Sequence record: ON286975
DNA from: Escherichia phage I29
Strand: one strand, 5' to 3'
Length of the DNA: 64,000 nt
The notes beneath the pieces were generated by a model. That model made no database searches. It had not been told where the DNA came from and saw nothing but the letters and a program-made list of their open reading frames with translations. This document shows positions 2,041 through 34,275 of this stretch, in pieces. Positions within the stretch are counted from its first letter, which is position 1, and every line of letters begins with the position of its first letter. Both the position numbers and the translations under genes were made by a program.

Positions 2041-5000
2041 TTACTTCAGTTTCTCTTGCAACCCAGTAACAACCTCTGTCAATTTTTTAACCTGCTCCTC
2101 AAGGGCGGTTATTTTATCGTCCTGTTCCCTGCAAACCTGGACAAGCAAGCCTGTTACAGCTGCATAGTCAACGTTATAGAATCTTTCCTCAGTCATCAGA
2201 GGGGTGCCGTCTTGAGTAGGCCCTGGAACCTCTTTCCTTTGCACGAAAGACCCAACCGCTTCTGGTAATGCTTCCATAACTTCTTGAGCAATTACCCCTG
2301 CGTAAGGCATACCATTCTCTTTTAAAGTATAGGTATAGCCTTTCATCTTCCGGATAGCTTCTACAGCGTTAGGTATGACCTCGATATTATCCTTCAGGTC
2401 ACGGTCAGAACTTTGACTAACAGTGGTGCATTCTACTGCACCATTGACAGCAAAATATCTTGATTTGGCCTCATCTGTCTTGGCCCCGCAATGGAATACC
2501 CAGTTGGAGAGTGTTGAGTTATCACTTATCTGGAACTCAAGCACATTCTTCCGGTCTGCACCATTGCCCCAATAATATAACCTACCTGTATTAGCAGGTA
2601 TGTTGGAACTGTTGCCAACAGTAGCTCCGCCGCCAGTGTGGATTATAAACTCTGGGTCAAGATTCGAACCTTGAGTTTTCAAAGTGATCCCTTTGCCACC
2701 AAGCTGCTGCCAAGGTCCCCATGTGAAAACACTACCTATTGTTGTTCCATAACGCAGGAATTTTTCCCCAAGATATGATACATATTCCTGCACACAGCTC
2801 TCAGGCACGTTGGCGTAATTCCTGTACACAATAAGTGTACCTGCCTGAGCACAAGGGTAGTTTCTCTCCGGAGTGGCCTGAGCATTGGCCTCTTGGTGAT
2901 AAAAACCCTCTCTATCCCCTTTGTAGTCGTTAAGGTCATTAGTTCCCAACCCTTGACCACGGTGCTGAATAACTTTGTTCCACGCTCTGTGGTTTCCCTG
3001 CTCTATGGAACGAGTGTACAGCTGGTCTAAACGACCTGCCATCTGGAAAGCGTAGTTTCCAGAAAAACCAACCGACAACCCTGCTACAACCATGGAACCT
3101 TCAGGTCCGTTGACGTTACCAGCCATTATTTTAGAAGGGTTGTTATTTCCGAACTGGTTGTTCCAGTCTGCACCTGTGTGGCATACAAAACCACCAGGAG
3201 CTGAGAAAGTGCCATCTTTGTTGAAGTTGTAGAATTTGTGAGCAGAACCTACAACATCACGAACAATAACTTGACCAGCCTCTGGAGTAGATCTGAACTC
3301 TGCCTGTCCTTTGAGACCAGCACCATTACCGCATTTAGAGGTAAACGTACCGTTAGTCAGATCCTCTGTCCCATCTGATGCACACTGGAAGCCTGCATTA
3401 GAGAATAACGCCTTTCTAGGACTGCCGTAGCACAAATAGTTAAGACCGTCTGCCCATAGCTCGACTTTTGGCATATTCATTTTGCTCATCACAGCATAGC
3501 GTTCAGCAGTGCCTATATAGTGCCACTGTGTGCCGCCACCAGTGTAGAACCCTGAAGTCCCTTTGAAGTCAACAATAGGTCTGGTGTTGGTATTATTATC
3601 TCCAAGAACAGCAAGATTCAAATCTGCTGACTGGAGAGGTGCAACGAACTTAACACCGTCCTGATTGTCTGTTACAGAGCCAACCTGGTAATCTTGCTCC
3701 CTGGTAAACACCTCGACAACATTTCTACTTGCGTATATGCTGACAGGGAAAGCACGCGCCTCTGCATAGAAAGCAACATATTCTTGTTTACCCCTTGTTG
3801 GAGCAACCATCCCAAGAAGTGCTTTTTCATTCTGGTAGAAATTTACTACCCCGTAGAAAGAGTCTCCTCTGTCTGTCCAACCACCAGTTCTATAGTGACA
3901 CTGTAAGGTCGCACAGTTCATAGGGTCATTTCCAGATGAAGACCTGGTGACTATAGTAATATCTGTACCTGTCGAAGGGGCGTAATACGGATCTGTTCTA
4001 ACGATGATTGGGTAGTATTTCCCATCTTCCATCCCTGCGGTTCTTGGCAGTGTTAAGAAGTCTTTTACACCTGCTGCTATAGGAACTTTGAACAGATTCT
4101 GAGCATCTGCTAAAGTTGTAGCCCCAGTGCCACCTGCGGCTTGAGGTAGAGGTTCCCACTTGGCCTTCCGGTTGTTATAAACACCCCATTCAAGCGTTCC
4201 TTCACCTTGCTCGTCCATACCGCCATCCCAGACAACCATCTTGGCGGCTTTCTTGGACCCCCAGAAGCCTCTTTCTGCCCCTGAACTACGGATCCACTCT
4301 CCAAGTCCCCAGTTTGCCAGCTGACCGTTCAGATCACCAACCTGCATATATTTAGGACAATCTAAGACCCCATCCTCACGGAAGCCTAAATAGCTATGAG
4401 TTTCAGATCCTTTTGCGCCTTTGTGCAGGTGGATTGTCAACCAAGCCTTATTGTCGTTTCTTACCTCAGAGTAGATCCTATACCCATGCTCAAGGACACC
4501 GTCAGCGCCGTATTTATCCCCATGGAGAATACCTGATGGAGACTTAACCTCAGAAGTGCTTTGAGATAGGTAAAGGTGCCCGAAGGTAGGGGTATTTCTA
4601 GACCCGAGACCGATGTGCGATCTAAAGGTATCATCGTTACGAGGTCTGACCATCGGCTGCCATGCAGTCCACTGATTTGTGTTGGCCTGATAGGTTCTCA
4701 AATACCAAACATCTACGTTAGAGAATGGATAGTATTCCTGACGACAACCTGTACCGCCGTTAGCATTGTTCTGCCAGACAATCAAGTGACCAGCACCAGA
4801 ACCTGCAGGGTAACCATTTGCCTCAGTTGCATAAGCAGTCATCGGCTGGTAGTATACACCATCCTGATTACCAGTCAAGTTATTGATATTGAAATTTGGC
4901 TCAAGGGCTGCACGTTGCTTATAGAAAGCACCGATATTGATACGGACTCCAGCGGCATCTCTAGCCCCTGTGCCGCCTTGCTCTATAGCAAGAGGTTGCC

Positions 5001-5841
5001 ACGAAGCTGTTTGTTGGTTCCACATACCCCAACGGCCTGTTGCATCAAGCTGCAAGTACCCTGCCGTATTTAAATCATCTCCAGCACGGATAACTGTTCT
5101 TGTTGGGTTGTTTGCCTCTAGGCGTTTAAATTCATCACGAAGTGCTATTCTTTTCGTTGTTGCTACACCGTTGGTTACTGCAATGGTGTACATGGCTCCG
5201 GTGGTAGCGCCACGGAAAATACCATCAACAGTTGTAGTATCACGACGAGATACCACACCGTTCAGAAATTTTTCACCAGCTGCTACAGAAGGGTAGTTGG
5301 TAGTTCTTCCCTCTTCAATAACTGCAGGGCCAACAAAGTTATCAAGGTGAATAACATCGCCTACAGTGTGCACTGTACCAAAATCTACACGCTGTGCAAG
5401 TGCTTTGGCATCGTTAGCTGTCTGAACAGTAACATCCATTACATCCTGGACAGACTGCCCTTCGGCTGTCATGATCATAGATGCGCCAATGGTAGATTCC
5501 AGCTCCTCCCTTAAGGACGGGTCAGTATATACCATCCATGCAGCATCAGTGATCCCACCATCGGAGTACGGTGAAGACAGTGCAGGAACAGTGTGCGGAA
5601 ATTCGCCTTTCCAACGTAGGTAGAGGTCTTCCTCTTCGAAGTAGGCAAAATCCATTGGGCCGTTTAACTTACCACCTTCCTTAAAGGAGATTACATGAGA
5701 AACAGTCCCATCAACATGGACAACATCGCCAATTTTTACACGACGGGTCAGGTCTGGTTGTTGAACAACCAGGTAATCATCCTCTGTCACTGCGGTAGTG
5801 GCAGGAAGAGATTCAATTCTGACAACTTTAATATCAGCCAT
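2041..5841 (-). CDS. long tail fiber / receptor-binding protein with C-terminal intramolecular chaperone domain
   Basis: 1266 aa; AGGAG RBS before ATG at 5841. N-terminal ~100 aa paralogous to the 8477..9145 product. C-terminal ~120 aa contains SDRDLKDNIEVIP...KMKGYTY, matching the conserved Ser-Asp-x-x-Leu-Lys autoproteolytic chaperone motif of tail fibers and tailspikes. Confidence 0.8.
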   Translation of the reverse strand: MADIKVVRIESLPATTAVTEDDYLVVQQPDLTRRVKIGDVVHVDGTVSHVISFKEGGKLNGPMDFAYFEEEDLYLRWKGEFPHTVPALSSPYSDGGITDAAWMVYTDPSLREELESTIGASMIMTAEGQSVQDVMDVTVQTANDAKALAQRVDFGTVHTVGDVIHLDNFVGPAVIEEGRTTNYPSVAAGEKFLNGVVSRRDTTTVDGIFRGATTGAMYTIAVTNGVATTKRIALRDEFKRLEANNPTRTVIRAGDDLNTAGYLQLDATGRWGMWNQQTASWQPLAIEQGGTGARDAAGVRINIGAFYKQRAALEPNFNINNLTGNQDGVYYQPMTAYATEANGYPAGSGAGHLIVWQNNANGGTGCRQEYYPFSNVDVWYLRTYQANTNQWTAWQPMVRPRNDDTFRSHIGLGSRNTPTFGHLYLSQSTSEVKSPSGILHGDKYGADGVLEHGYRIYSEVRNDNKAWLTIHLHKGAKGSETHSYLGFREDGVLDCPKYMQVGDLNGQLANWGLGEWIRSSGAERGFWGSKKAAKMVVWDGGMDEQGEGTLEWGVYNNRKAKWEPLPQAAGGTGATTLADAQNLFKVPIAAGVKDFLTLPRTAGMEDGKYYPIIVRTDPYYAPSTGTDITIVTRSSSGNDPMNCATLQCHYRTGGWTDRGDSFYGVVNFYQNEKALLGMVAPTRGKQEYVAFYAEARAFPVSIYASRNVVEVFTREQDYQVGSVTDNQDGVKFVAPLQSADLNLAVLGDNNTNTRPIVDFKGTSGFYTGGGTQWHYIGTAERYAVMSKMNMPKVELWADGLNYLCYGSPRKALFSNAGFQCASDGTEDLTNGTFTSKCGNGAGLKGQAEFRSTPEAGQVIVRDVVGSAHKFYNFNKDGTFSAPGGFVCHTGADWNNQFGNNNPSKIMAGNVNGPEGSMVVAGLSVGFSGNYAFQMAGRLDQLYTRSIEQGNHRAWNKVIQHRGQGLGTNDLNDYKGDREGFYHQEANAQATPERNYPCAQAGTLIVYRNYANVPESCVQEYVSYLGEKFLRYGTTIGSVFTWGPWQQLGGKGITLKTQGSNLDPEFIIHTGGGATVGNSSNIPANTGRLYYWGNGADRKNVLEFQISDNSTLSNWVFHCGAKTDEAKSRYFAVNGAVECTTVSQSSDRDLKDNIEVIPNAVEAIRKMKGYTYTLKENGMPYAGVIAQEVMEALPEAVGSFVQRKEVPGPTQDGTPLMTEERFYNVDYAAVTGLLVQVCREQDDKITALEEQVKKLTEVVTGLQEKLK

Positions 5842-5877
5842 TCTTTCTCCTGAAAGGGGGCAAACAGCCCCCCTATG

Positions 5878-8475
5878 TTAAAGGTACAATCCACGGTATT
5901 GAGCATAAAGGCCCAGACCGCGAAGGATTTCGCCAGAGTGATAGCCAACCGGATCAGAAACTGCCCAGCAGCCGTTTAAAATATTATCCCCATTAATGAA
6001 GTGGTGCTTTTGCAGTAGCTTCACACAGGCTTCCACAACAATATCTATTTGAGGTATTGTCTCTGAATACCCGCACAGACCTAGCCAGCAGCAACCTGCA
6101 AGCCATTCACCTACCACCCACATCCTGTCTCCTCTGTCCTGATAAGAATATCCCCCAGAGGTGTTAAAGTCTGTAGGCAGATTTCCTGAATGAGATGACT
6201 GGAATCTGTTGAGGAACCATGCCCATTTCTGGCAGAACAGGAATAGTCTTTCATCAACAGGTTCTTTATGTTTCTTGAGCTCATATATTGTGCGGCACGC
6301 AGCAACAAAAGATCTTGACTGGAGCTTAGAGTTATCTACCATCTCCCACCAACCAGTCAACCCTTCATTACCTCTTTGCCATACATAACGTGAGGCAACT
6401 GGACCCTCTGTCTTAAATGTATTATTATACCAGACTTGAGCGTCATACAGAAAGCCTATTGTATTTGACAATCTATGGCGATCTATGTTTTCTGCACCCA
6501 TGCAGTAGACTGCTGGGTATTGCATGCCAGGGTAGGGCCAATTTGGCCTTTCCTCTAAGAGATAGTTTTCCTTATCTATCACCTTTCCGGCAGGGAACAC
6601 ACCTGGTGTGTGCCTGTATGCACCTTGCTTGTAGTTTCTGACATAGCAATCACCAACCTTGGCGGTTGATTCTGTCTTGCTTGCCATCCATACGCTAAAC
6701 CAGATTAGATAAGCATCCCTATCTGCAATATAGAATTGCGGCAGTGTGTTGACGCAATATAGATCAAACAAGCCATTACCTATCTGCCTGTCGCTTAGGC
6801 TGAAATCTACAGAGGTGAGTCCCTTAGGATTAGCAAAGAAAGGTTTAATCTCTTCTTCAGTGTGATGAGGTTGTGTCGGATCTAGTTTGAAATCTCCTAG
6901 AGTAAGAGTTTCTGTTATCCATTGTCCATTAGTGGCATATAGATCAGCATACCATAACCACCTGTCTTTGTCAAGAAATTTGACCCTTACCATCTCATCA
7001 TCTGATCGATAAGTTACTGAGTTTAAAGAAATCTCTCTTCCAAAGTTGAAAGTTACTTTGCCTCTTGCTATATTACAACGGGTGAAGTTGTCAGAGTGGT
7101 TGTAAATGTCAGTATCGTACTGCATACTAACACTGGCACCACCGCTCACGGCAATGTTTTCCTCTTTAGGTAAGAGGTACGGATTACCGTCTTTACCAAC
7201 TACCTCTACGAAATCAGTAACCTTGGCAACTATTTCTGTTACCTCTGCCCCTCCAAAAGGAACCCCTATCCTGTACTGTTTTTTGTTATTGTTGCCATCA
7301 TTAAGGATGAAATGTGGCTGGAACAGAACCCCTTCTCCTCCGAAATTCATAACAATTTCAGCATCTCTGCCTATTTTGTATGTAGTCCCTTTTTGAATTA
7401 TTTCGCAAGGCTGGCGTGCGTTCATTCTAAAATTGATATACCCGTCACTGTCTCTGCTCATGACAGGAACTGTTCCTGCAACAAGACAAGTACCGTCTGT
7501 AAACGGTGCCTTAATCAACGTGGTCTTTCTAAACAACTTGTCGTAGGCGTTTATATCACTGAAATTAAGCAACTTGTTGTAAGACTGTTTAAACGCGGTG
7601 TAATACTTTTCCTCACCTGTCAAGGTGTAGAGTTGATAACAAGCGTCACACCACATTTCTTCCCCGTCCAACTCTGGGGCCTGATTATCTGCAACCACGT
7701 TTATAGGATTTACAATTACAGGGGATCCAGCAGGTATCACCGATCCACCCTGCTCTTGAGGTAATCTTACACAATAGGTCACCTTGTGGCTTCCTGTAAC
7801 ACCCTTATCTTGTAATTGGATTGTGCCGAACTCTATAGACGTATGCCCACTGTCGGCTATGCTCCCGTTAGCCCAATAGCGGTTACCATCCCATGCTATG
7901 TACCACTCAACCCACCAACTTAATCCTGATGTTGTCCAATCTGGGTTAGCATCTGTGCCACCGTAAACATCAGAGTCTACAGTGTTTCTTCCTAACACAC
8001 CGTTATACGCTTGGAATGCCTTGTCCAGGTATTCCCCCCATGTCGGAGATCCAGCTGGGATTTTTCCTCTACCGTTGGTAAAAGACACTACCACATCTTT
8101 AAACCCACCGTGTGATGGAACCCCATCTGTGGATAGAGGGTAGTGGGACAATCTTTGCATTTTACTTTCTACGGCATATGCACCCAGAAGATGACTATTG
8201 TAAGCTTCCCAAGCATCTTTTGCCCTATCCAGATAGAAATCGCTTTTCGATGCCCTGTATGCTTCAATGTATCCCAGAATCAACACAGCTTGGGACTCAT
8301 GCATTGCCCAATCGTTATTTATCTTATTACCTGCCCACCCTGCAGCTATAAGACCATCAGGGTTTACTAGCTTATTTTGTGTAGGTGTGTTGGTAATACC
8401 TGTGTTGTTATCGAGGCACTTCCTGTGCCCCTCAATCATCTGAAATACGTTATCAATGTTGTGTTGAATACGCAT
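5878..8475 (-). CDS. putative tailspike-like protein, possible glycan-degrading enzyme
   Basis: 865-aa ORF between two fiber genes; its ATG lies 1 nt after the TAA of the upstream 222-aa anchor-domain protein. No anchor domain of its own. Enzymatic assignment is inference only. Confidence 0.45.
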   Translation of the reverse strand: MRIQHNIDNVFQMIEGHRKCLDNNTGITNTPTQNKLVNPDGLIAAGWAGNKINNDWAMHESQAVLILGYIEAYRASKSDFYLDRAKDAWEAYNSHLLGAYAVESKMQRLSHYPLSTDGVPSHGGFKDVVVSFTNGRGKIPAGSPTWGEYLDKAFQAYNGVLGRNTVDSDVYGGTDANPDWTTSGLSWWVEWYIAWDGNRYWANGSIADSGHTSIEFGTIQLQDKGVTGSHKVTYCVRLPQEQGGSVIPAGSPVIVNPINVVADNQAPELDGEEMWCDACYQLYTLTGEEKYYTAFKQSYNKLLNFSDINAYDKLFRKTTLIKAPFTDGTCLVAGTVPVMSRDSDGYINFRMNARQPCEIIQKGTTYKIGRDAEIVMNFGGEGVLFQPHFILNDGNNNKKQYRIGVPFGGAEVTEIVAKVTDFVEVVGKDGNPYLLPKEENIAVSGGASVSMQYDTDIYNHSDNFTRCNIARGKVTFNFGREISLNSVTYRSDDEMVRVKFLDKDRWLWYADLYATNGQWITETLTLGDFKLDPTQPHHTEEEIKPFFANPKGLTSVDFSLSDRQIGNGLFDLYCVNTLPQFYIADRDAYLIWFSVWMASKTESTAKVGDCYVRNYKQGAYRHTPGVFPAGKVIDKENYLLEERPNWPYPGMQYPAVYCMGAENIDRHRLSNTIGFLYDAQVWYNNTFKTEGPVASRYVWQRGNEGLTGWWEMVDNSKLQSRSFVAACRTIYELKKHKEPVDERLFLFCQKWAWFLNRFQSSHSGNLPTDFNTSGGYSYQDRGDRMWVVGEWLAGCCWLGLCGYSETIPQIDIVVEACVKLLQKHHFINGDNILNGCWAVSDPVGYHSGEILRGLGLYAQYRGLYL

Positions 8476-8476
8476 C

Positions 8477-9145
8477 TTAGATAGCTCCTGCGATAATCAA
8501 TGCCCCGTACCAAGTTAACCCGTTGTCGTAGGTTTCCAACTTGAAAATGTCTGTTGCACCAGCTGTAAATGTTAGGATAGGATCTCTTCCGTAGGACCAT
8601 TTAACATTACCAGGCCAATAGACTTTGTTGCCGCCAGAGGTCTGAGTAATGCATACGGTTATAGTTCTCGCCACCCCTTCAAGACCTTCTGTTTGATTTT
8701 CAAAAGAGATTGTGGTATTTGAAGTTAGTCGAACCTTAAAGGTATCCGCAACTTCAAGATCCATATCAAGCTGACCACCGATAGATCCGTAATCAACTAT
8801 TCTGCCAGAAGAAGTTGCAGCAAGCTCACCAAAAACAGACCAGGCGTTTGCAGACACACCCCCAGCACCCTCTACAGTGGAGTCTGGGAGGATTATTTTA
8901 GGATAATCCCCGTTCCACGTGTAGTAGCGCTTAGTTTCTGGATCATAAGCAAAGTCCTTCTTGCTCTTAAGATAACCACCCTCTGTGAAATAGACTATCT
9001 TAGTAATGCTAAGATCGTTGACAACATCGTCAATCTTAGCCTTTCTTGTCCCATCAGTCTGGTTGACAACCAAGAAGTCATCACTCAGGACTGTTTCTGC
9101 ATCTTCAAGATCTGGAATTGGTATTGTAGGATAAGCTACAGCCAT
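8477..9145 (-). CDS. short tail fiber / adaptor protein with conserved N-terminal anchor domain
   Basis: 222 aa; N-terminus (DDFLVVNQTDGTRKAKIDDVV ... FTEGGYLKSKKDFAY ... WNGDYP) aligns with the N-terminus of the 1266-aa fiber. Confidence 0.55.
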   Translation of the reverse strand: MAVAYPTIPIPDLEDAETVLSDDFLVVNQTDGTRKAKIDDVVNDLSITKIVYFTEGGYLKSKKDFAYDPETKRYYTWNGDYPKIILPDSTVEGAGGVSANAWSVFGELAATSSGRIVDYGSIGGQLDMDLEVADTFKVRLTSNTTISFENQTEGLEGVARTITVCITQTSGGNKVYWPGNVKWSYGRDPILTFTAGATDIFKLETYDNGLTWYGALIIAGAI

Positions 9146-32828: not shown

Positions 32829-33239
32829 TCATTTAAGTTTAATGCAGTTTTTAAGCTGGCGTTCCATACGATCCACAACCTTGTCTGGAACATCATGAAT
32901 GCTTTTATTACCGTGGCGGTTTTCAACCACGATCACGGTATAACTATACCCATGACTGATTGCCATGTCAACATATTCCTGCACATGTTTTTCTTTTGTA
33001 AACGTATTACTTACCACGATACGGTCGTATCCCATACGCATCATATCTTCTACGTTATCTTTGCACCATTTTGCTGCGAGTGTTACTTTACTTGCATCCC
33101 AGTTGTAATTGCCGTCATCGTCATACCAGAACATGTCGTTCTCAAAATGTGGATACAGACCCTCTAAAGATAGCGCATTTGCCAGTGTTGATTTGCCAGA
33201 CCCTGGTAGACCACGCACGATATATAGCATTTTAGACAT
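32829..33239 (-). CDS. P-loop kinase, polynucleotide kinase-like
   Basis: ORF track 32829..33296; ATG at 33239 (MSKMLYIVRGLPGSGKST...) has a GGAGGG RBS; Walker A GLPGSGKST at the N-terminus as in polynucleotide 5'-kinase domains; adjacent to phosphoesterase and RNA ligase-like genes. Confidence 0.55.
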   Translation of the reverse strand: MSKMLYIVRGLPGSGKSTLANALSLEGLYPHFENDMFWYDDDGNYNWDASKVTLAAKWCKDNVEDMMRMGYDRIVVSNTFTKEKHVQEYVDMAISHGYSYTVIVVENRHGNKSIHDVPDKVVDRMERQLKNCIKLK

Positions 33240-33339
33240 AGTGACCCTCCGTTTTAATTTCAACGGTAGTATACCTGACTGTTTTGTTAATTTCAAGTGT
33301 TGACACTAGGTTATTTGTGTGGCAGGATAGACTGACAAA

Positions 33340-34275
33340 ATGACAAATGAGGAACGTATGATGAAGTATTTTAATGCAGACGACCTAGTTGACAAAGGTC
33401 TTGTAACCAGTAGGTATTACCCAGATCTCGGGTTAAAGATCTATAAATATGCTAGAAAAGTATTTTACAACAATTTATGGCATTTGTCCCCTCGTTTACT
33501 GGAGTGCCGAGGCATTGTTGTAGGTAATGAAGGAAATGTTGTGGCATGGCCCTTCACAAAAGTGTTTAACTTGGGAGAAAACTCCACCAACCTGCCTGAC
33601 AATAAGCTTGTGACTGCGGTAGAGAAAAAGAACGGATTCCTTGGTGTGGTATCATCTCATAAAGGTGACCTATTGTTCTCAACAACCGGGTCTCTTGATT
33701 CTCCATATTGTAACCTTGCAAAGGAAACCATCCAAGAGCAATGTGGTAATTTAGATCTTATCAAGAAGGTTATGGGCAATGAAAACATGACATTCATGTT
33801 TGAAATTTGTCACCCTTCAGATCCGCATATTGTTCAAGAAGACCATGGCGCATATTTGATAGGTTGCAGATATAATGATTCTGGAATAATGCTACCAGAA
33901 GCAGCTTTAGATGGGATTGCCAAATACCTTGGTGCAAAACGTCCTCACACTGTGCGTGAAATCCCGTTCAGCTATGCAAAAGAATTAGCTGCAGAAACAA
34001 GGGGCGAAGGGTATATGATCCGTAAGCCTTACTACCCTTATGACCTGCAGCTGAAGATCAAGTCTCCATACTATTTGGCACGGAAGGCCGTAATGAGGGG
34101 TAAAGCTTGGAAGATTTGGGATGATGATATCTTTAAACGTATTGACGAAGAGTTTTATGGCATGGTAAACTTCATTCGTAGCAATTACACAGAAGATGTG
34201 TGGAACTGCCTCCTGGAGCAGGAACGCCGTGAGATACTTGATTGCTATTTTCACAACGAGGACTATATGCAATGA
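33340..34275 (+). CDS. RNA ligase-like nucleotidyltransferase
   Basis: 311 aa; covalent nucleotidyltransferase motif I-like VEKKNGFLG (KxNG); distinct from the DNA ligase at 36746; divergent from the kinase/phosphatase pair. Confidence 0.5.
   Translation: MTNEERMMKYFNADDLVDKGLVTSRYYPDLGLKIYKYARKVFYNNLWHLSPRLLECRGIVVGNEGNVVAWPFTKVFNLGENSTNLPDNKLVTAVEKKNGFLGVVSSHKGDLLFSTTGSLDSPYCNLAKETIQEQCGNLDLIKKVMGNENMTFMFEICHPSDPHIVQEDHGAYLIGCRYNDSGIMLPEAALDGIAKYLGAKRPHTVREIPFSYAKELAAETRGEGYMIRKPYYPYDLQLKIKSPYYLARKAVMRGKAWKIWDDDIFKRIDEEFYGMVNFIRSNYTEDVWNCLLEQERREILDCYFHNEDYMQ

Follow-up and report, generated by a model that had tools for sequence, protein, structure and literature searches.

Here we explore an 865-aa tail protein encoded on the minus strand of a 64,000-nucleotide stretch of Escherichia phage I29 (sequence record ON286975; hereafter the window), a Vequintavirus, that is, an rV5-like E. 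coli myovirus. The protein, called gp42-like after its rV5 orthologue, is predicted to form a discontinuous (alpha/alpha)6 barrel of six hairpins, which two beta-rich inserts interrupt, and its gene directly follows that of a 222-aa gp43-like protein. We give an even chance to the reading that gp42, as a tip subunit, binds and cleaves a glycan by a chemistry like that of glycoside hydrolase (GH) families GH8 and GH48. The gp43-type protein would attach to the baseplate via its Tail_spike_N domain and would hold gp42, by a C-terminal domain of about 100 aa, as the distal subunit of a side fibre. There gp42 would bind, and most likely hydrolyse, a conserved enterobacterial surface glycan, which would help the virion to reach or traverse the envelope. 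The chemistry would be that of clan GH-M (GH8/GH48), with E60 as general acid and D270 and E849 as further active-site carboxylates.

The gp42-like open reading frame (ORF) is a genuine gene and not a chance ORF, since it has many nucleotide and protein matches, falls into a known protein group, is nearly identical to rV5 gp42 and has an orthologue that was detected in virions. The ORF listing of the window gives an ATG start and 865 codons plus stop. Phage A51.2 shares 99.5% identity with the 2,598-nt stretch; a nucleotide search with the gene matched 119 phage records, 117 at a coverage of at least 80%, and tblastn with the protein matched 524. Among the PHROGs, the protein falls into group 2871 ('tail protein') with E=0. 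Identity is 99.4% to rV5 gp42 and 35% over the full length to phi92 gp141 (E 2e-177). Both gp42 and gp43 were detected by mass spectrometry in rV5 virions (Kropinski et al., PMC3606486). An earlier note on this DNA, made from the letters, had described an 865-aa ORF that lies inside a fibre cluster and lacks an anchor domain, and on both counts it was right: the ORF listing and the gene order agree, and Pfam finds no anchor in the gp42-like protein at E<=0.1, whereas PF18668 (Tail_spike_N) is found in both neighbours (E 2e-10). The translation also holds the N-terminal motif that the note had quoted (WAGNKINNDWAMHESQAVLILGYIEAYRASKSDFYLDRAKDAWEAYNS), its residues being W47-A-G49, D55-W56-A-M-H59-E60-S-Q62-A, Y69-I-E-A-Y73 and W88-E-A-Y91.

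From that motif the earlier note had sensed a likeness to helical-barrel carbohydrate-active enzymes and had proposed a structure-based search. This was run with an AlphaFold2 (AF2) model and predicts a fold of the six-hairpin glycosidase type, so the impression has gained support. Helices were modelled at residues 2-23, 59-76, 79-95, 269-286 and 289-306, and six more between 663 and 860, which corresponds to the about 12 helices in six hairpins that mark the (alpha/alpha)6 superfamily. The figures listed with the model by fold family were 26.7 for GH48, 25.7 for GH8, 24.8 for GH105, 24.5 for GH8 xylanase and cellobiose 2-epimerase, 24.4 for GH76 and 24.1 for GH88. The beta-rich parts are an insert at about residues 101-254 and a large region at about 329-613, the latter being the most confident part of the model. 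For this region, Foldseek returned CIA30/NDUFAF1 (prob 1.0, TM 0.45), a xylanase and an agarase that each bear a carbohydrate-binding module (CBM), and the HFTV1 turret; PHROG 23426 matches residues 482-580. With moderate confidence, the modelled central beta region resembles galactose-binding or CBM-type sandwiches.

Sequence comparison supports the barrel independently of the model. A profile of 52 family sequences matched PDB chains of GH76 (4v1r, E 7e-6), cellobiose 2-epimerases and a 'six-hairpin glycosidase'; all of these matches span one hairpin only, the very hairpin that the earlier note had flagged. Among 49 distant relatives, two match Pfam Glyco_hydro_76 (best E 6e-5) and two GH127. 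The gp42-like protein itself has no match to the GH76 or AGE epimerase hidden Markov models (HMMs) of Pfam above the curated threshold.

The family is large and widely spread. An exhaustive profile search of 1.84 billion representatives yielded 363 clusters at 50% identity, and tblastn recovered full-length homologues with 24-35% identity in Phapecoctavirus/phi92-like phages, Rosemountvirus, Kolesnikvirus-sized Erwinia phages, the jumbo phages PBECO4, Goslar and Asesino, the T7-like Melnykvirinae Atoyac10 and Kaonashi, and N4-like Philippe. Residue conservation was counted over 49 members at 17-30% identity. Near-invariant are E60 (44/49), Q62 (46/49), D270 (45/49), D502 (48/49), Q680 (48/49), W699 (46/49), R721 (46/49) and E849 (44/49), while R341, Y489, Q652 and D678 are kept as well. 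E60 and D270 stand at the N-terminal ends of the AF2 helices 59-76 and 269-286, and six-hairpin glycosidases place their catalytic residues at helix N-terminal ends. The conserved residues may line one pocket.

Elsewhere the module occurs fused to other domains. In nine of the 49 distant members it is fused behind a PF05939 minor-tail domain, and other copies follow a Phage-tail_3 (J-like) protein or precede N4 gp65-like non-contractile sheath domains (PF23844/PF23845); the fused proteins are P0034, P0068, P0065 and eight others. Since the module has moved among phage types and anchors, it appears to serve host interaction and not to belong to the structural core.

Two motifs of the family, aTTEgQ with E60 and nAxDAExW with D270, line up in the same order, at non-significant hhalign scores, with the GH8 motifs 'SEGQ' (E55 of E. 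coli BcsZ) and 'AsDGD' (D116). E55 is the catalytic acid of BcsZ. The targets were BcsZ and an 8-sequence GH8 alignment built with seven plasmid-borne homologues. For the D270 motif and D116 of BcsZ, E was 0.003-0.004 in a one-target comparison, at a probability of 8-11%. Membership of GH8 was rejected as unproven, because the motif alignments are not significant, no counterpart of the base was aligned and no Pfam match appears at E<=0.1 (hhalign probability 1-11%). The modelled protein thus shows kinship to clan GH-M at the level of the fold only. Its candidate likeness to BcsZ, Clostridium thermocellum CelA and the GH48 cellobiohydrolases of this clan lies in two motifs at helix N-termini, one T-T-E-G-Q-like with a Glu and one of the form A-x-D-[AG]-[ED]-x-W. 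Unlike them, it has a predicted barrel interrupted by beta inserts of about 160 and 330 aa, lacks significant sequence similarity, a Pfam GH8/GH48 match and an identifiable base, and is a virion protein, whereas the GH-M enzymes are secreted or periplasmic.

The second line of evidence concerns the gene upstream. All lineages examined have a short gene annotated 'tail fiber protein' immediately upstream of the gp42 homologue. Its product has 222 aa in Vequintavirus, 157 aa in Phapecoctavirus and phi92 (gp140), 207 aa in Rosemountvirus, about 270 aa with a T7 tail-fibre N-terminus in Melnykvirinae, and 189 aa in N4-like Philippe. Across these five lineages the last ~100 residues are homologous (35-48% identity, E 1e-14 to 1e-29), whereas the N-termini are unrelated. 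This C-terminal 'docking' domain has no model in Pfam or NCBIfam. An HMM of it was scanned against 71 IMG/VR loci with a gp42 relative, 67 of which had enough upstream sequence. In 66 of the 67 the domain was found on the same strand, just before the gp42 homologue, the lone exception being a weak partial match. The gap between the end of the domain and the gp42 homologue is 5-70 nt, apart from two loci with 237 nt, where the match starts at residue 57. The upstream proteins of these loci range from 63 to 563 aa and include coiled coils and long repeat-containing shafts; the docking domain invariably forms their C-terminal end. Docking domain and six-hairpin module are each present once in the window. 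In phi92 (L088 4239-7588) the same cassette is present, the gp140 docking domain matching at E 1.5e-49 and gp141 being the 35% identical homologue named above. In T7-like Atoyac10 and Kaonashi the pair takes the slot of the gp17 tail fibre and the small protein has a T7-type fibre N-terminus, which implies that the pair is the receptor-binding apparatus of these phages.

Because the genes co-occur and the C-terminal domain is kept behind swapped N-termini, we infer that the docking domain is a socket for the six-hairpin protein, and hence that gp43 and gp42 would form a two-protein fibre. Their genes have the arrangement typical of two-component fibres, in which a small anchored protein and a large anchor-less one are adjacent and co-oriented. 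The anchor of gp42 is thus apparently supplied in trans by the gp43-like gene, which would explain why the protein itself is anchor-less. The start codon of gp42-like is preceded by AGGAG (8489-8485), and a single nucleotide separates it from the TAA stop (8479-8477) of the upstream gene, a spacing that suggests translational coupling of the two.

Fusions of the docking domain and the module in the expected order, of the Rosetta-stone kind, were sought among 155 family proteins and none was found. The only odd case is P0063 (293 aa), in which the first ~190 residues of the six-hairpin family are followed by a docking domain (E 2e-19), i.e. the reverse order; this protein could represent an adaptor that branches, or else an artefact of assembly. 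The BASEL annotation labels the gp43 orthologue (Bas58, L001 11331-11999) 'sialidase domain protein'; in the gp43-like protein (8477-9145), Pfam and NCBIfam show just Tail_spike_N, the remainder is the docking domain, and no sign of a sialidase domain was seen. The N-termini of the gp43-like (8831-9145) and gp41-like (5527-5823) proteins, both on the minus strand, are paralogous Tail_spike_N anchors of ~100 aa (38% identity, E 3e-18), and the two fibres presumably occupy or compete for equivalent attachment sites.

Several points weigh against a catalytic gp42 held by gp43. The AF2 model was built on an alignment of just seven sequences and reached a mean pLDDT of 70 and a pTM of 0.54. Searches of Pfam (E<=0.1), NCBIfam and PDB sequences with the gp42-like protein gave zero matches, and no CAZy-type family HMM in the Pfam and NCBIfam scans matched it. 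The alignment of the motifs with GH8 reached hhalign probabilities of 1-11% with E 0.003-0.06 against a single target, and the GH8 base (Asp in Y-D-A-x-R, GH8a) found no counterpart, the C-terminal segment giving only a spurious match (E 0.24). The putative contact between gp43 and gp42 is deduced from synteny only. In the literature searched, no member of the gp42 family was the subject of a biochemical or structural study. Finally, the rV5 clade alone departs from the family at W274M (with a W at 275), W643R, Y651M, W715N, G717K and Y718L, whereas phi92 gp141 keeps aromatics at positions 274, 643, 651, 715 and 718. These changes could mean an altered specificity or a weakened or lost activity.

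The strongest alternative, which we consider a real if lesser possibility, is that gp42, placed at the end of the gp43 fibre, is a pseudo-enzyme that binds like a lectin and tethers the phage to a conserved glycan but does not cleave it. The positions lost by the rV5 clade, Y651M, W715N, G717K, Y718L and W643R, lie near conserved motifs, and a mere binder would agree with the lack of any enzyme-family HMM match and with the place of the pair in the sole fibre slot of Melnykvirinae, where binding is the minimal requirement. However, the rV5 clade keeps the conserved carboxylates despite its aromatic and glycine replacements: E60, D270, D678, E849, Q62, Q680 and R721 are all retained, both there and in members at 17-30% identity, and such retention of carboxylates and polar residues is more typical of catalysis, which counts against binding only.

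If gp42 is an enzyme, its chemistry may differ from that of a GH8/GH48-type inverting hydrolase. A polysaccharide lyase, epimerase or unsaturated-uronyl hydrolase acting on a glycan with uronic acids, such as enterobacterial common antigen (N-acetylmannosaminuronic acid, ManNAcA) or colanic acid (glucuronic acid, GlcA), seems unlikely to us. Foldseek lists a D-glucuronyl C5-epimerase (prob 0.99) and a xanthan lyase, one distant member has a weak C5-epim_C match, and the conserved Y489, Y651, R341 and R721 are of the kinds of residue that lyases use. Yet Y651 is lost in the rV5 clade, and the family lacks the conserved pair of His that AGE-type epimerases have, with T or S in other members at the position of H59.

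Still less probable is a purely structural role, with gp42 as a scaffold or joint of the baseplate and fibre network that carries other fibres and with its fold as an evolutionary relic. The gene does lie in the baseplate block following the sheath initiator and is highly conserved in the genus, and for the probable homologue in S144 PHYRE2 recognised neither a fibre-like nor a spike-like shape (PMC7432712); but the exchange of the module among myoviruses, T7-like and N4-like podoviruses, jumbo phages and prophage tail-tip proteins with different anchors, together with the conserved polar and acidic residues, speaks against it. An assembly factor or chaperone of the upstream or downstream fibre gene, standing outside the host-recognition machinery, is very improbable: although gp42, like many tail-fibre chaperones, is encoded directly downstream of a fibre-like gene, its 865-1000 aa are far above the size of known fibre chaperones, gp41 has its own intramolecular Peptidase_S74 chaperone, and rV5 gp42 and a probable homologue, S144 ORF17, were found in virions. 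S144 ORF17 (Loughboroughvirus, 111 kDa) was represented by 25 virion peptides and HHpred suggested a hydrolase (PMC7432712); it is likened to the Rosemountvirus gp42 homologue by size and annotation only.

Among Vequintaviruses, gp42 and gp43 rank with the best conserved of the fibre genes. At least 95% nucleotide identity is seen in 104/119 records for gp42 and in 111/118 for gp43, as against only 15/122 for the gp41-like fibre gene, which is covered in 78 of these 122. Since gp42 and gp43 are conserved while gp41 varies, the target of gp42 is likelier to be a conserved glycan than a host-range-defining one, and the expectation of the earlier note that an enzymatic gp42 would define the host polysaccharide specificity is probably wrong. 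This agrees with Maffei et al., who found most of the locus conserved and proposed that it may target conserved glycans. Among the matching records, 18 to 23 labelled 'Campylobacter phage' (host C. jejuni), including MG065635, MG065646, MG065647, MG065650, MG065653, MG065656 and MG065662, share 98-99% identity with Vequintaviruses or Phapecoctaviruses of E. coli across the fibre genes; these are probably mislabelled or contaminating coliphages.

Fibres of two components have been described in other phages. K1E/K1-5 and SP6 combine a separate adaptor, gp37, with a tailspike. G7C gp66 with gp63.1 and the tailspike protein (TSP) complex of CBA120 are reportedly of this kind as well. As in the gp43/gp42 pair, a small anchor protein stands beside a large anchor-less enzymatic or receptor-binding protein, and the anchor of gp43 belongs to the Tail_spike_N type, originally defined from CBA120 TSP1 and G7C gp66; unlike these tailspikes, the gp42-like protein itself has no N-terminal PF18668. 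The pair differs from the known adaptor fibres in that the distal protein is a predicted six-hairpin barrel rather than a beta-helix or SGNH esterase, that the proposed docking element is a separate C-terminal domain of ~100 aa without a Pfam model, and that five or more kinds of anchor carry the same pair of docking domain and module.

To our knowledge, the phage depolymerases characterised so far are nearly all built as a beta-helix, a beta-propeller or a triple helix. Tail-associated proteins with an alpha/alpha-toroid domain, in this respect like gp42, were predicted as depolymerases by DepoScope and in a survey of Klebsiella prophages. In the former, the toroid was rare enough, with 11/984 hits, to be kept out of training (PMC11326577), and in the latter it made up 29 of ~3,900 prophage depolymerase domains, i.e. 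<1% (PMC12491483); what these two sources say of the toroid class includes no biochemically characterised member. The tail protein VP4 of the archaeal spindle virus SSV19 (PDB 7xdi_F) differs from gp42 in overall architecture.

The 'glycosidase' label is not new at the level of annotation: BASEL calls the gp42 orthologue 'lateral tail fiber protein with glycosidase domains', and one Aeromonas phage record reads 'glycosidase superfamily'. What appears to be undescribed is the conserved cassette of docking domain and six-hairpin protein, and its spread across phage types. In the phi92 cryo-EM study (2026), fibre II is unassigned and gp140 is among the candidates, while gp141 is never mentioned; the baseplate section of the phiTE cryo-EM paper describes no gp42 homologue.

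The same phages carry another conserved glycan-directed component, the NGR deacetylase fibre (rV5 gp34/phi92 gp142/N4 gp64), which adjoins the gp42 homologue in phi92 and Phapecoctavirus; there, the neighbouring gene product nieznany gp227 matches N4 gp64 at E 4e-33. That gp42 could itself be the NGR-targeting 'sugar deacetylase' fibre was ruled out, as blastp against N4 gp64 gave no match at E<=1 and no similarity to gp65 or gp66 was seen. In PMC8594841, a BASEL figure legend (S5 Fig) puts the fibre component called 'sugar deacetylase' 'around position 8,000' in an alignment of the locus. Counted from the tape-measure gene, position ~8,000 falls inside gp42, and the deacetylase homologue is rV5 gp34 (Bas58_0034); the wording of the legend could cause confusion in the literature.

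More tentatively, the relatives of gp42 may found an uncharacterised tail-borne GH family with a universal plug-and-socket docking, exchanged by myoviruses, podoviruses, jumbo phages and prophages, in which the rV5 and phi92 pairs would be an as yet unassigned fibre set (e.g. phi92 fibre II) that cuts a conserved enterobacterial glycan. The gp43/gp42 (gp140/gp141) pair, read as adaptor plus enzyme, offers a concrete candidate for the fibre II density of phi92. Phages of the rV5 and phi92 types rank among the broad-host-range coliphages that are isolated most frequently, and therapy cocktails make use of them. A six-hairpin tail enzyme with a docking domain would, if true, give the engineering of host range or enzybiotics a catalytic scaffold of a new type, together with an attachment module that is portable. 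Even if gp42 were merely a non-catalytic binder, its family would still be the probable sole receptor-binding protein of the Melnykvirinae podoviruses.

On the minus strand the genes run from tape measure through tube initiator, plug, hub, spike and sheath initiator to the 222-aa gp43-like gene, gp42-like and the 1266-aa gp41-like fibre. The gp43-like protein is 100% identical to rV5 gp43, and the 1266-aa fibre is 87% identical to gp41. Coordinates of the three genes and their parts are given in Table 1.

Table 1. Features of the gp43-like, gp42-like and gp41-like genes in the window (aa, residues of the protein named).
Feature	Position	Strand	Evidence
gp42-like tail protein, orthologue of rV5 gp42/phi92 gp141	5878..8475	-	ORF, identity, PHROG 2871
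gp42-like aa 1-100, conserved N-terminal helix (2-23) and predicted first barrel hairpin (helices 59-76, 79-95)	8176..8475	-	AF2; GH76/cellobiose 2-epimerase profile matches
gp42-like aa 57-62 AMHESQ (family consensus aTTEgQ), candidate general-acid motif, E60/Q62 near-invariant	8290..8307	-	family alignment
gp42-like aa 101-258, predicted beta-rich insertion A between hairpins 1 and 2	7702..8175	-	AF2 strands 101-254, partly low confidence
gp42-like aa 259-310, predicted second hairpin (269-286, 289-306), begins D270-G-E272 (family nAxDAExW)	7546..7701	-	AF2, alignment
gp42-like aa 311-640, predicted beta-sandwich region B, jelly-roll, CBM-like; pLDDT 83-90 at aa 440-610, best modelled	6556..7545	-	AF2, Foldseek
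gp42-like aa 641-865, six predicted C-terminal helices closing the barrel; conserved Q652, D678, Q680, W699, R721, E849	5881..6555	-	AF2, alignment
rV5-clade replacements in gp42-like, aa 274, 643, 651, 715-718	7651-7668, 6523-6549, 6322-6333	-	family alignment
gp43-like 222-aa partner, proposed anchor/adaptor	8477..9145	-	100% identity to rV5 gp43; virion mass spectrometry (PMC3606486)
gp43-like aa 1-105, Tail_spike_N-type putative baseplate anchor	8831..9145	-	PF18668 E 2e-10; 38% identity to gp41-like N-terminus
gp43-like aa 109-222, C-terminal putative 'docking' domain	8480..8821	-	35-48% identity across 5 lineages
gp41-like 1266-aa variable fibre, same transcription unit	2041..5841	-	Tail_spike_N anchor and C-terminal Peptidase_S74 chaperone

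Between the gp42-like stop and the gp41-like Shine-Dalgarno sequence, a 6-bp G/C hairpin, GGGGGC-TGTTT-GCCCCC, is found on the minus strand at 5856-5872. As a terminator it is unconvincing, just three T following it, and a strong terminator-like site lies after gp41-like at 2033-2014. The GC skew of the window changes from negative below ~33 kb to positive above ~34 kb, and this change of sign (region about 33000-34000) matches the switch of coding strand between the gene blocks.

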